Of a stretch of 24,735 nucleotides of DNA, positions 5,952 through 17,591 are shown one piece after another. Origin of the DNA: a virus (Duplodnaviria; Caudoviricetes); IMG/VR virus record IMGVR_UViG_3300032218_001005, positions 1 through 24,735 of that record; one strand, 5' to 3'. The notes beneath the pieces are model-generated. The model was not told where the DNA came from. It saw nothing but the letters and a program-made list of their open reading frames with translations, and made no database searches. The first letter of the stretch is position 1; each line of letters opens with the position of its first letter. The translations under genes were made by a program, and so were the position numbers.

Positions 5952-5998
5952 TTTGTTTTCCTAAAAGACCCTATGCGTTGTGCTGGGGCATGGGATGA

Positions 5999-6027
5999 AT
6001 TATTAACCTAACTTAATTTCATGTCAA
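5999..6027 (-). promoter_or_regulatory. Leftward sigma70 promoter (pL-like) TTGACA-N17-AATAAT
   Basis: Perfect -35 at 6027-6022, 17-bp spacer, 5/6 -10 at 6004-5999. Confidence 0.8.
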
Positions 6028-6091
6028 CAGTTAATTTAGGTTATTTTCTAGGGATTAACCCTAGTGTTGCTTAATTGTTAACTTAGCTTAA
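6003..6091. promoter_or_regulatory. Operator-like TTAA-N6-TTAA sites plus a central 17-bp palindrome
   Basis: TTAACCTAACTTAA (6003-6016), TTAATTTAGGTTAT (6031-6044) and TTAACTTAGCTTAA (6078-6091); the outer two lie within the divergent promoters. CTAGGG-ATTAA-CCCTAG at 6048-6064. Confidence 0.65.
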
Positions 6092-6094
6092 AAT
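6067..6094 (+). promoter_or_regulatory. Rightward promoter (pR-like) TTGCTT-N16-TAAAAT, probably giving a leaderless cro mRNA
   Basis: -10 at 6089-6094 ends 6 nt before the ATG at 6101; no SD. Confidence 0.65.
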
Positions 6095-6100
6095 TAAGCT

Positions 6101-6259
6101 ATGACAAAAACAGATTTGATCCGACTCGCAGGCTCACAGCGTGAGCTAGCCAAGATACTAAGCGTTTCTTTTCCTGCGGTTTGCCAATGGAAAGAAAAAA
6201 TTCCCGAGCTGCGTTTGCGCCAGCTTAAAGACTTGAAACCTGAGTGGTTTACAACCTAA
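6101..6259 (+). CDS. cro: Cro-like HTH repressor, 52 aa
   Basis: Absent from the track. Manual translation MTKTDLIRLAGSQRELAKILSVSFPAVCQWKEKIPELRLRQLKDLKPEWFTT has the P22 Cro/YdaS-type pattern GSQ-ELA--L-VS--AV-QW...IP--R; first rightward gene. Confidence 0.9.
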   Translation: MTKTDLIRLAGSQRELAKILSVSFPAVCQWKEKIPELRLRQLKDLKPEWFTT

Positions 6260-6275
6260 CCAAATCATGTATACT
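6248..6275 (+). promoter_or_regulatory. Promoter TTTACA-N16-TATACT at the 3' end of cro
   Basis: 5/6 match at both hexamers; the predicted start (~6281-6282) coincides with the first base of the first hairpin. Confidence 0.6.
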
Positions 6276-6281
6276 TCAACC

Positions 6282-6660
6282 CGTCTAGAGTGGCATCTAG
6301 GCGATGAATCGACAGTGAACCCCGCAGAGTACTGTGTGGTCTTGCAAGGTAGCAAGCGTGACTTTTGTCGATTCAATCGTTTAGCTGCTGCTCTCGCCAA
6401 GAGCCAAGACCACAGAGCATTTTGCGGGGTTTTTGCTTTTGGACAACACAATGCGGTACGTCGATGGTTGTGTTTGAGATACCCCGATACACGAGCAAGC
6501 CAAATCGGGGAGCGTGGGCTAATTGCTAGAGCGCGGTGGTTGAAACAGTCTGGCATAGTGCGATGCGATGACATGGCTCCGAAGAGCAACATCGAAGCAC
6601 AGGCGAACTTTGGTTTTGACCACGGTAAGGCTGTGCTTTGCTCCAACATTCACCAAAGAG
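6282..6660 (+). ncRNA. Candidate large structured RNA, two pseudoknotted domains (6282-6440 and ~6445-6660); family not recognised
   Basis: Hand-checked helices: 6282-89/6296-6303, 6318-44/6405-31 (25 of 27 paired), 6305-15/6365-75, 6348-58/6378-89, 6390-94/6400-04, 6482-88/6504-10, 6525-30/6549-54, 6594-6602/6631-39, 6536-45/6614-23, 6608-14/6652-58. G-U pairs favour the + strand. Confidence 0.7.
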
Positions 6661-6675
6661 CAATAAGGAATACAG

Positions 6676-6993
6676 ATGAGACAGTGCAAATGTGGTGGGT
6701 TGATAAGGGAACATCAGCTTACAGGGTACAGAATTGCATGGACTTGCAATAGTTGTGGTCGATATGAACAAATTAACTTGATGGAGAAAAAAATGCCAAT
6801 TGGGTTCAAACAAGAAAACGCATTGCAGATTTATGGTAATGGTGAAGGTTTTGTTGTTATTGAAGAATGGGAAACCAGTGACTGTGTTGATTTGTTAGGT
6901 AAAGTTGAAATCAGTTATGACAAATTTAAACAGATGATTGAGTTCCACGCTGAAGATTTATTAAAAGAAGCAATTGGAACTAATGATGTTTGA
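6676..6993 (+). CDS. Zinc-ribbon domain (CxC...CxxC) fused in frame to an acidic domain
   Basis: SD TAAGGA before ATG 6676; second GGAG plus in-frame ATG at 6793. Confidence 0.7.
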   Translation: MRQCKCGGLIREHQLTGYRIAWTCNSCGRYEQINLMEKKMPIGFKQENALQIYGNGEGFVVIEEWETSDCVDLLGKVEISYDKFKQMIEFHAEDLLKEAIGTNDV

Positions 6994-7342
6994 ATCAGGC
7001 TTTGATAGATTTTGGGCGGCATGGCCAACAAGTACCCGAAAGGGTGGCAAATCAGATTGCCGTAAACGCTGGGAACGCTTTTACTGTGAAACTTGCGTTG
7101 ACCAAATCCTAAAACACATTGAATGGATGAAAACAACCGACCAATGGCGTAAAGATGGAGGCGCTTACATTCCAGCACCTGCGGTTTACCTTAATCAACG
7201 CCGATGGGATGGCGCTGAAATACCTGAAGTTAAGAAGACCATCAATATTTTGGAAAAAATTGCCGAGGAACGCGCAAGAGCTGTCCCAATTCCCCCCGAA
7301 ATTAAAGCTAAGTTTGATGCGCTGCGGGGGCGAAATGGATAA
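6983..7342 (+). CDS. Short protein resembling the C-terminal helical domain of phage replication initiators/organisers
   Basis: FDRFWAAWP...KGGK...W...KDGGAYIPAPAVYLNQRRWD pattern; occupies the O-gene position; likely start ATG 6983. Confidence 0.65.
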   Translation: MMFESGFDRFWAAWPTSTRKGGKSDCRKRWERFYCETCVDQILKHIEWMKTTDQWRKDGGAYIPAPAVYLNQRRWDGAEIPEVKKTINILEKIAEERARAVPIPPEIKAKFDALRGRNG

Positions 7343-15605: not shown

Positions 15606-17591
15606 TTATCCTATTGCGTTATAAGCATTCATGAAGTTGCCACCGCTTACATTTGACCCTGCTGCGCCTTGGTTTTGGTTAAGCAATTGAGACAACAAAT
15701 AAGCGTTTCCTGCGCCTGTCAACGCACCGCCATAACCAGCCGCTTGCCCCATTCGACCAGCCGCTTGTGCAGCTGCCGCCCCTACACCAAGTTGACCTTG
15801 TGCAGTAGCGTTGTTTTGTGCCAATGTATTAGCCTGTCCTTGTGCGGTTTGACCAATTCCAGCAATACCCGCCAACGTGTTGTAAATGTTGCCACGTTGC
15901 GTTTGGAAACGATTAAAGGCATTGTTGTATTCTTGGCTGGCCATGCCTTGGGTGTAGTCTTGCATACCCTTTATAGCGTTTCCACCAATCAGTCCACCAG
16001 CAAGGTTAGAGGCACGTTGGTTAGCCATTTGACCTTGTTGGAGTCGGAATGCGTAGCCTGGGTCCATGCCCTGTGCAAATTGCTGTGGACCAAACTGTTG
16101 AGTTAAATAACCCGATCCTGTGGCTGTTCCAATTGGCTTACCATTTTCATCATATTGAGTATATTGGCCAGGCAGCATTGACCTAATTTGATTAAGTGCG
16201 CCGTACCCTGCTCCTCGATATGGTACGCCTTGAGCGTTCACTGTGTTGAACATCTCTTGCTGCATTTGTGCAGCTTTTAATGCCGCATCTGCTTGGATTT
16301 GAGCTGCATCTTTAGCGGCATTTGCGCTAAGTACTCCACTTGCTACATTACCAGCGCCTAACAATATAGCCGCTAAAGATTTTGGATCAGACAACAAAGA
16401 ACTGAGAAAACTGCCTCCAGCAGCACTATTTAAAAAGTCTGTTGAAATACCAGCCTTAGATAACAAATTACTCAAAGTACTAGTTGAAGCTGGAGTTAAT
16501 CCACCACTAGCTAATGCATCAGCATTTGCTTTTGCTAAAGCATCATGAGCCGCTATATCTTCTGCGCTTGCCCCGCTAGTTACAGTATCACCACCGCCAC
16601 CGCCACCGCCACCGCCAGTAGCCGCTGCCTCAGCCGCCGCAATTTCTTCTGCAGTTGCACCAGCGCCATAACCCTCTGCACCATATATGGCGTTTTTAAC
16701 TGCATTTCCCGTGTAATCAGCAGCACTTGCGCCGCCACCAGCATTAGCAAGGTCAGTTAATGAAGTACCAGCAAGATCAGTAAGTGATCCACCAGTTAAT
16801 GCAGTTGACCCACCACCAAGAACACCACCATAAGATGACAAATCACCAGCAGCACTTGCACCGCCTGCCGCACCCCCCGCCGCACCAGCTGCGTCACCCA
16901 ATAAATTAGCGCCTGTAAATAAGTTTGCCCCTAATGCCGCCAAGATCATGGGGCCAAAATCAGTAGCTACATCTTTTAAAAAACTGCCAAAACTTCCACT
17001 ATCCTGTTTGGTTAAATCAAAAACTCCATAATCAACAAGTTGCCCTTTTTCATTGATTTTTGGCACTGAAACTATGTTTGGTTTGCTTGGGTCAGGAGTT
17101 AAGTATTCGCCAGGCTTTAGCGTCAATTGCTTAAAATTACCTGATGCATCATATTGGGCAACAAGTGGTTTGCCTTGAAATGTTTGTTTAGTGGGTATTG
17201 TGTAACCCTGAACTTGCCTGCCACCACCCATCCCTAAGGGTGCTGACCTATCTGCATAGTCTAAATATTCATCACTGATTTTAGTGTAAGCTGGTTTAAT
17301 ATTTAAACCAAAACCCGTAGATGGAGTGGTAACTTCATTTAATTTAGTGGAAAGATTTGTTAATGAATTAGGGTCTAACGCTTGTCCTAATGATGGCAAT
17401 GGCTCAAGTTTAGGCTGATATTGGGCAAACTGATTTACACTAAAAAACTCAGGCAATCCAGTTCTAGGATTAATTGTCCCAGCACCACCCATAGACTTCA
17501 ACATTGCCGCTTCTTGAGGATTGATATGGGCAAGCATAGTGTCGCCATATCTGCCAAGTGATGCTAAGTTTCTTAATTGATTATTTGGCAT
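15606..17591 (-). CDS. Putative DNA ejection/pilot protein (P22 gp7-like) with long N-terminal extension
   Basis: C-terminal AAKDAAQIQADAA...DPGYAFRLQQG...YTQGMASQEYNNAFNR; Gly/Ala-rich with hydrophobic segments. Confidence 0.75.
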   Translation of the reverse strand: MPNNQLRNLASLGRYGDTMLAHINPQEAAMLKSMGGAGTINPRTGLPEFFSVNQFAQYQPKLEPLPSLGQALDPNSLTNLSTKLNEVTTPSTGFGLNIKPAYTKISDEYLDYADRSAPLGMGGGRQVQGYTIPTKQTFQGKPLVAQYDASGNFKQLTLKPGEYLTPDPSKPNIVSVPKINEKGQLVDYGVFDLTKQDSGSFGSFLKDVATDFGPMILAALGANLFTGANLLGDAAGAAGGAAGGASAAGDLSSYGGVLGGGSTALTGGSLTDLAGTSLTDLANAGGGASAADYTGNAVKNAIYGAEGYGAGATAEEIAAAEAAATGGGGGGGGGDTVTSGASAEDIAAHDALAKANADALASGGLTPASTSTLSNLLSKAGISTDFLNSAAGGSFLSSLLSDPKSLAAILLGAGNVASGVLSANAAKDAAQIQADAALKAAQMQQEMFNTVNAQGVPYRGAGYGALNQIRSMLPGQYTQYDENGKPIGTATGSGYLTQQFGPQQFAQGMDPGYAFRLQQGQMANQRASNLAGGLIGGNAIKGMQDYTQGMASQEYNNAFNRFQTQRGNIYNTLAGIAGIGQTAQGQANTLAQNNATAQGQLGVGAAAAQAAGRMGQAAGYGGALTGAGNAYLLSQLLNQNQGAAGSNVSGGNFMNAYNAIG

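Follow-up and report, generated by a model that had tools for sequence, protein, structure and literature searches.

RNA-based immunity of the C4/CI type is known from a few enterobacterial phages, in which two or three specificities occur. The P4 terminator is Rho dependent, and cis pairing of P4 CI has a role in read-through. HK022 put and lambda nutR/tR1 lie just after cro, and we know of no hypervariable, self-complementary address in either; in the ColE1 primer, a G-rich loop pairs with the template DNA. In the sections of PMC5320573 that bear on C4, the variable loop sets specificity and RNase P processes the RNA at GGW; further sources for this comparison are PMC2864571 and, for c4-2, PMC5737381. 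The corresponding sections on P4 describe how CI stops replication gene transcription by pairing with upstream sequence (PMC4825925) and terminates it through seqA and seqC (PMC4825925, PMC3632133), and they present P4 CI and IsrK-STnc1160 of Gifsy-1 with an upstream target, an internal antisense RNA, and premature termination before replication genes (PMC4825925, PMC3632133). In ColE1 and ColIb-P9, the passages on copy control state that loop kissing seeds a longer duplex, sets incompatibility, and controls replication (PMC5043065, PMC4555960, PMC6380287).

The locus that we compared with these systems lies in a 24,735-nt stretch of DNA (the window; positions 1 to 24,735 of IMG/VR record IMGVR_UViG_3300032218_001005) from an uncultured Caudoviricetes phage whose record is 72% complete. 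PHROG hits outline a lambda-like early region, in which Erf and an exonuclease are encoded leftward. Rightward come cro, a gene for a short replication protein, RusA, and HNH, with lysis, tail, and terminase genes farther on. On the plus strand, an RNA that we call domain 1 sits between a 52-aa cro-like gene (6101-6259; Pfam P22_Cro, E = 8e-10) and the replication gene (6986-7342). It shares the position just after cro with HK022 put and lambda nutR/tR1. Upstream of cro, positions 5952-6100 form a divergent control region; it contains several palindromes, one of them at 6048-6064, and a match to a leftward promoter, and no cI-type gene lies to its left; a possible -10 box noted by eye at 6089-6094 suggests that the cro message may be leaderless. 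A GroES-like co-chaperonin gene (2466-2726) is located between the recombination genes and the terminase.

Homologs were collected in several rounds. A gapped pattern search gave 12 close loci, to which a search with cro added 37 and one with the replication protein 80; in 68 of the resulting 129, an iterated profile detected the element. Two further patterns added 9 and 120 loci, and the stored IMG/VR stretches that carry the element were estimated at ~350. The profile matched 198 of the resulting 259 loci, and after the removal of 4 truncated copies the set comprised 125 distinct elements, the window included. One element, L245, was excluded from fold counts over all homologs (n = 124), and pair-by-pair covariation was counted in an alignment of 38 homologs (alignment A1). 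In a subset of the homologs, cro lies immediately 5' of the element. Among 185,579 prokaryote genomes there was one exact pattern match, and since it fell on a 2-kb contig of a metagenome-assembled genome, no host or prophage was identified. The RNA went undetected in the Rfam comparison that the earlier note had proposed: there was no match over the element or the whole window and none within 6240-6800 at E values up to 10. Among related loci, a set of 20 gave a passing hit to int-alpA in L013 alone, and a set of 13 gave nothing useful at E values up to 5. A blastn search of the element against GenBank phages returned one 32-nt chance match only, a search against plasmids returned nothing, and no tRNA or tmRNA was found. 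Our literature search yielded no description of the domain 1 RNA, and two of its short motifs were absent from seven supplementary files of PMC10690425; two large archives of that paper, which the search did not cover, may include the RNA among unnamed candidates. Five complete relative genomes carry one copy each and no second copy, the weaker matches being the opposite strand.

The earlier note had read the region behind cro as a promoter, a hairpin, a 27-position stem enclosing two arms, a U-rich run, and two long-range pairings, all of which we found where it had placed them. The predicted sigma-70-type promoter (6248-6275) consists of TTTACA (6248-6253), a 16-nt spacer, and TATACT (6270-6275), matches the consensus at 10 of 12 positions, and has a predicted start at about 6281-6283. 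Since such consensus matches are no more frequent here than in shuffled sequences, the promoter call rests on conservation: the -10 box lies 4 to 6 nt 5' of the leader hairpin P1 in 123 of 125 homologs, and at least 9 of 12 positions match in 62. P1 (6282-6303; 6282-6289/6296-6303, loop 6290-6295) displays a constant target box, TGGC (6291-6294), and is 99.7% paired in the 38 homologs, with 5 of its 8 pairs changed on both sides. The long stem (6318-6344/6405-6431), which is also the terminator stem, has 2 mismatches and 2 G-U pairs over its 27 positions, closes a two-arm junction, and shows changes on both sides in 13 of 26 pairs. Arm 1 (6348-6358/6378-6389) carries a variable antisense loop (6365-6375); arm 2 (6390-6404; 6390-6394/6400-6404), which also covaries, carries a constant antisense loop, GCCA (6396-6399). 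Flush with the stem is an interrupted U tract (6430-6440; five U and then GC in 80 homologs), which is predicted to be a probably leaky intrinsic terminator.

This segment had a folding z-score of -6.0, and none of 200 shuffles was equally stable. When compensatory changes were sought as the earlier note had suggested, they were abundant: with both pseudoknots included, 97.6% of cells in the 38-homolog alignment were paired, and both partners differed among homologs in 32 of the 60 pairs, a result matched by none of 500 shuffles, and slid controls reached 36 to 47%. The 11-bp complement 6305-6315/6365-6375 covaries across homologs. The loop-loop contact TGGC/GCCA is nearly invariant, with one compensatory change in 38 homologs (L001), and the invariance of the constant loop in later loci was partly imposed by the pattern used to find them. 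The frequency of G-U pairs would favor a plus-strand RNA over DNA or the opposite strand.

Although its pairing is kept in nearly all elements, the variable part of domain 1 takes many forms. The variable target box (6305-6315), or address, and the loop at 6365-6375 formed a helix of at least 8 bp in 123 of 125 distinct elements, and one of the two misses, L245, was a parsing artifact. Approximately 60 loop words occur among the 125 homologs, 51 of them parsed and the other 9 kept as entire loops. Because some words cross-pair, the true specificity groups are fewer than 60. On average, leaders paired with their own loops over 11.4 bp (-16.8 kcal/mol) versus 6.7 bp (-7.3 kcal/mol) with the loops of other types. 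Moreover, among 54 pairs of elements whose scaffolds differ at no more than 2 of ~133 positions, 30 carry different addresses. Different words on near-identical scaffolds are the pattern that selection for distinct specificities, or the shuffling of old alleles, would leave.

The 11-bp pairing is also part of a longer helix, and in this respect the earlier note's picture is incomplete. In the predicted fold of a truncated transcript, positions 6287-6315 pair with 6365-6394 over 28 bp; this read-through helix (6287-6394) excludes P1 and both arms and, from the modeled folds, would exclude the terminator stem as well. In the read-through fold, the 5' strand of the terminator stem is kept in a local hairpin, H (6319-6340). 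H is 97.7% paired in the 38 homologs, with only 1 of 8 pairs changed on both sides, and its mean z-score over the 124 is -1.9. A helix of the 28-bp type was the predicted fold of transcripts truncated just past the constant loop in 123 of 124 homologs (mean, 28.5 bp), and the terminator base was predicted in 123 of 124 full-length transcripts. The alternative structure is 93.8% paired in alignment A1, with 12 of 33 pairs changed on both sides; most of this covariation comes from the address helix common to both pictures, the extension having few two-sided changes. One position of the extension lacks a partner in 23 of 36 homologs, and at its variable position A stands opposite C in 0 of 115, where ~15 would be expected from the margins.

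Folding order, derived here from equilibrium folds of truncated sequences rather than from kinetics, is predicted to run from the read-through fold to the terminator. In the window, the read-through fold is ahead by ~10 kcal/mol at 6405-6411, and the two folds are level at 6424, 7 nt before the end of the stem. Blocking the leader is predicted to tip this balance: with the leader blocked, 122 of 124 homologs form the upper part of the terminator stem early, and with the leader free 36 of 124 do. The two "pseudoknots" are therefore best seen as the likely contacts from which a 28-bp leader helix grows in competition with the terminator. Three other leader types, which differ in sequence and occupy the same slot in related phages (B, L100, L101, and L104; C, L093 to L095, L111, and L125; D, L020, L025, and L031), follow the same order in all 11 loci, with the leader pairing first and the terminator forming last.

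Domain 1 resembles the C4 RNA of P1 and P7 (RF01695) in that its antisense segments are on the same strand as, and 3' of, their target. The P1 record holds a 77-nt C4 RNA with a GGU start, after two target boxes and before a second pair ahead of icd. In both systems, a constant and then a variable box stand in the leader, and the RNA presents a variable loop and then a constant segment ending in CAA; the two segments, one variable and one constant, pair with the upstream boxes as in RF01695, c4-a1b1, and c4-2. Within domain 1, a C4-sized core of 75 nt (6338-6412) begins with GGU and contains a 7-bp stem stacked on the 5-bp arm. The core measures 75 to 79 nt in 115 of 124 homologs, the GGU start is present in 117 of 125, and the same 7-bp stem is present in 117 of 125. 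This size and start fit an RNA of ~77 nt cut by RNase P at GGW, and the core is a candidate mature antisense RNA that may be released by processing; the RNA library contigs described below show no ends.

Domain 1 also differs from C4. It does not match the family covariance model, it has the three-stem junction but neither arm has a tetraloop, and no downstream second target (a2/b2) is found, either as a covarying copy within 700 nt in the 38 homologs or at a shared position in six genomes. In addition, its constant segment is in a hairpin loop, its terminator is flush with the stem, its leader is complementary over 28 bp, and it precedes a replication module rather than icd-ant. Type D leaders, which likewise have no Rfam match, share with P1 C4 the stem flanking the variable loop and the constant-loop pattern, and they do have a tetraloop arm. 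With P4 CI, domain 1 has in common a seqA-like upstream pairing with an internal RNA, a location ahead of replication genes (of 98 elements whose flank is long enough, 81 are followed by a replication gene within 1 kb and 17 have none detectable there), and an open frame that starts 5' of the internal promoter and crosses the RNA. It differs from P4 CI in having an apparent intrinsic terminator and no downstream seqC, in the absence of an integrase from five complete relatives, and in showing no sequence match by Rfam or blastn. Plasmid copy control by ColE1 RNA I/RNA II and by the ColIb-P9 Inc RNA and pseudoknot offers a parallel to the kissing loops proposed here, but the antisense RNA comes from the opposite strand there and from the same transcript here; no minus-strand promoter or terminator match was found over the element, by consensus scans that can miss them. 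Domain 1 would thus work like P1 C4 and P4 CI but lacks the second target, tetraloop arm, and Rfam match expected of a member.

We consider it probable that domain 1 is a conserved two-state leader attenuator ahead of the replication module that is set to "stop" by its own RNA in trans. As soon as 6365-6394 is made, the leader (6287-6315) would zip onto it, and with the 5' strand of the terminator held in hairpin H, polymerase would read on into domain 2 and the replication gene. An RNA that had been terminated, or processed to the 75-nt core, would display its variable and constant loops and kiss the two boxes of a new leader; by zipping along that leader, the finished RNA would free the transcript to form the terminator. 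Stopping would make more antisense RNA, a positive feedback. Only phages of the same address would be silenced, which could serve superinfection exclusion or copy control and would select for new addresses. On the longer cro transcript, ribosomes restarting after cro at the ATG at 6267 may override the stop.

If so, the switch would offer an explicit two-fold mechanism that needs no downstream target, with ~60 addresses on one scaffold in a single uncultured phage family, and the natural address series would be a source of candidate orthogonal RNA attenuators. The analysis brings out a 28-bp alternative fold, an address repertoire of this size, a signal in open reading frame (ORF) openness, and a connection of domain 2 with a truncated initiator.

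In the five complete relatives, searches for a tyrosine integrase, a serine recombinase, an S24 repressor, and ParA found nothing (PF00589, PF00239, PF00717, and PF13614, 0 of 5 each), and PF01381 gave only weak hits at the cro position. There is thus no evident resident state to supply the RNA, and genomes without recognizable lysogeny genes carry the switch, which bears on how such phages sense coinfection or persist. Small shares (0.04 to 0.13) of the stretch are contained in 14 sequencing runs. Four RNA runs yielded seven short contigs of relatives, six of them over the two RNA domains and none over cro or the replication gene, in runs that were chosen by this stretch and with flanks that diverge faster. 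Contigs cross the U tract in all four RNA runs, and one of 345 nt spans both domains; they carry no ends or strand and may be DNA. Stopping at the U tract is therefore at most partial in the relatives, or the contigs derive from DNA.

A 161-codon ORF (6267-6752, plus strand) overlaps domain 1. The cro stop codon lies 8 nt before its ATG, and since this ATG at 6267 starts on the -10 box, the ORF could be translated only from the cro transcript. We rejected it as a conserved protein: it has no Pfam or PHROG hit, its two halves are frameshifted relative to each other in 36 of 125 elements, 45 contain a stop codon, and its length and frame vary. The earlier note had named protein-type conservation of this ORF as the observation that would speak against an RNA; it was not seen, yet the ORF tends to stay open where cro is adjacent (46 of 51 elements, versus 26 of 58 others). 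Counted by address type, it is open in 20 of 24 versus 14 of 33 (P = 0.0025, which overstates the difference because the elements are related); on distinct length combinations, 11 of 19 are in frame (P = 0.024). Across its middle, the ORF may run in any of the three frames, after which it mostly comes back to the same one. These counts lend modest support to possible selection on openness, not on the protein.

An attenuator acting only in cis would use the same two folds, with the choice made by polymerase speed or by cro-derived ribosomes passing through the ORF and with no RNA in trans. At the point where polymerase would arrive at the U tract, little energy separates the two folds, and the openness of the ORF next to cro, together with the open frame that crosses the promoter and immunity RNA of P4, would fit such a device. 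It is nonetheless unlikely, since it leaves the ~60 addresses on near-identical scaffolds unexplained; the ORF, moreover, is open through the terminator in 63 of 125 elements and absent or closed in 62, and the statistics weaken once relatedness is considered. A static, compact RNA with both pseudoknots formed, acting as a put-like antiterminator, a structural RNA, or a ribozyme, would be consistent with the covariation of all of the helices and with the compensatory change in the loop-loop contact, and, judging from helix lengths, the 22 bp formed by arm 1 and the address helix could pack side by side with the 27-bp stem. Since this fold leaves unexplained both the conserved 28-bp extension, which destroys P1 and both arms, and the hypervariability of a single helix, and since neither the self-cleaving ribozyme models nor any other family in Rfam matched the element, we regard it as quite improbable. 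Of the earlier note's interpretation we thus retain a promoter-driven noncoding RNA, most likely an attenuator that works without an N-type protein, and we set aside the single doubly pseudoknotted fold and the ribozyme.

The remaining readings look beyond domain 1. In the first of these, domain 1 gates the folding of domain 2, a second conserved structured RNA (6446-6670, plus strand, type X in the window), as a ColE1-like replication primer, and the address defines replicon incompatibility. Domain 2 is exchangeable among relatives, with at least four types behind domain 1 (type X in 76, type Y in 29, and others in 20 of 125). An internal word (~6590-6598) is repeated near its 3' end (~6655-6663), and the two copies covary (7.7 versus 4.5 nt; 0 of 2,000 permutations); no covarying complement was found in the RNA (5.3 versus 5.3), as might be expected if the word paired with the template DNA strand. 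The replication initiation protein of the window (118 aa; PHROG E = 1e-13) consists of the C-terminal domain only, being 35% identical to residues 144 to 255 of a 263-aa DUF1376 protein in L038 (L038:2547-3335). The initiator behind domain 2 is without its N-terminal domain in 79 of 81 loci, and 27 of the 37 loci found with cro have a short leader, an ORF of 219 to 263 aa behind it, and no type X domain. Domain 2 seems to occupy the place expected for the origin and the N-terminal half of the initiator, and the 345-nt contig that spans both domains is in keeping with a primer. Nevertheless, a U tract that directly adjoins the long stem suggests termination; leader types C and D stand directly before other modules, and type D stands directly before a full-length initiator without domain 2. 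For ColE1 itself, PMC5043065 calls the trigger speculative. Taken together, these points make a primer gated by domain 1 distinctly unlikely. A broader joint reading, which we offer tentatively as possible if doubtful, is an all-RNA replicon, in which domain 2 would be a primer RNA that has taken over from the half of the initiator that binds the origin and that attaches to the template strand via its internally copied word. Domain 1 would then be a same-strand antisense switch giving incompatibility groups, with dozens of mutually blind addresses, in phages without a repressor, integrase, or partition gene. Finally, the RNA could be a trans-acting small RNA with targets elsewhere (late phage genes, the host, or other phages), the leader match being autoregulation. 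P1 C4 does have a second target, and one of six genomes, G005, contains a 13-nt exact match to its own variable loop ~9.5 kb from the element (G005:C1, ~17152-17164). This match is absent from the other five genomes, no match occurs at a shared position in the six, and no covarying copy was found within 700 nt downstream in the 38 homologs, so that remote targets are very improbable as the main role.

Several minor observations concern the neighborhood of the element. The likeness of the domain 2 words to RNase P motifs was dropped as chance, since the order was reversed and Rfam gave no match. Some of the 17 elements without a nearby replication gene precede cargo genes, and in L193, L203, L170, L176, L212, and L119 the two-domain RNA is found before nonreplication genes or after the replication gene. 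Nonreplication genes behind the two-domain RNA encode DUF5856, a TET-associated glycosyltransferase, a PAPS reductase-like protein, and HNH. Domain 2 also occurs behind other leader types (L125, L127, and L093 to L101). Phages with short leaders (int-alpA or type D) have initiators of 219 to 263 aa, several with DUF1376, and the int-alpA RNA (RF02996) stands directly before full-length initiator genes in many cro relatives (L013:2170-2236 and similar). Type Y domain 2 has a shorter, invariant echo (CACCC), and the L218/L105 type has a repeated G run.
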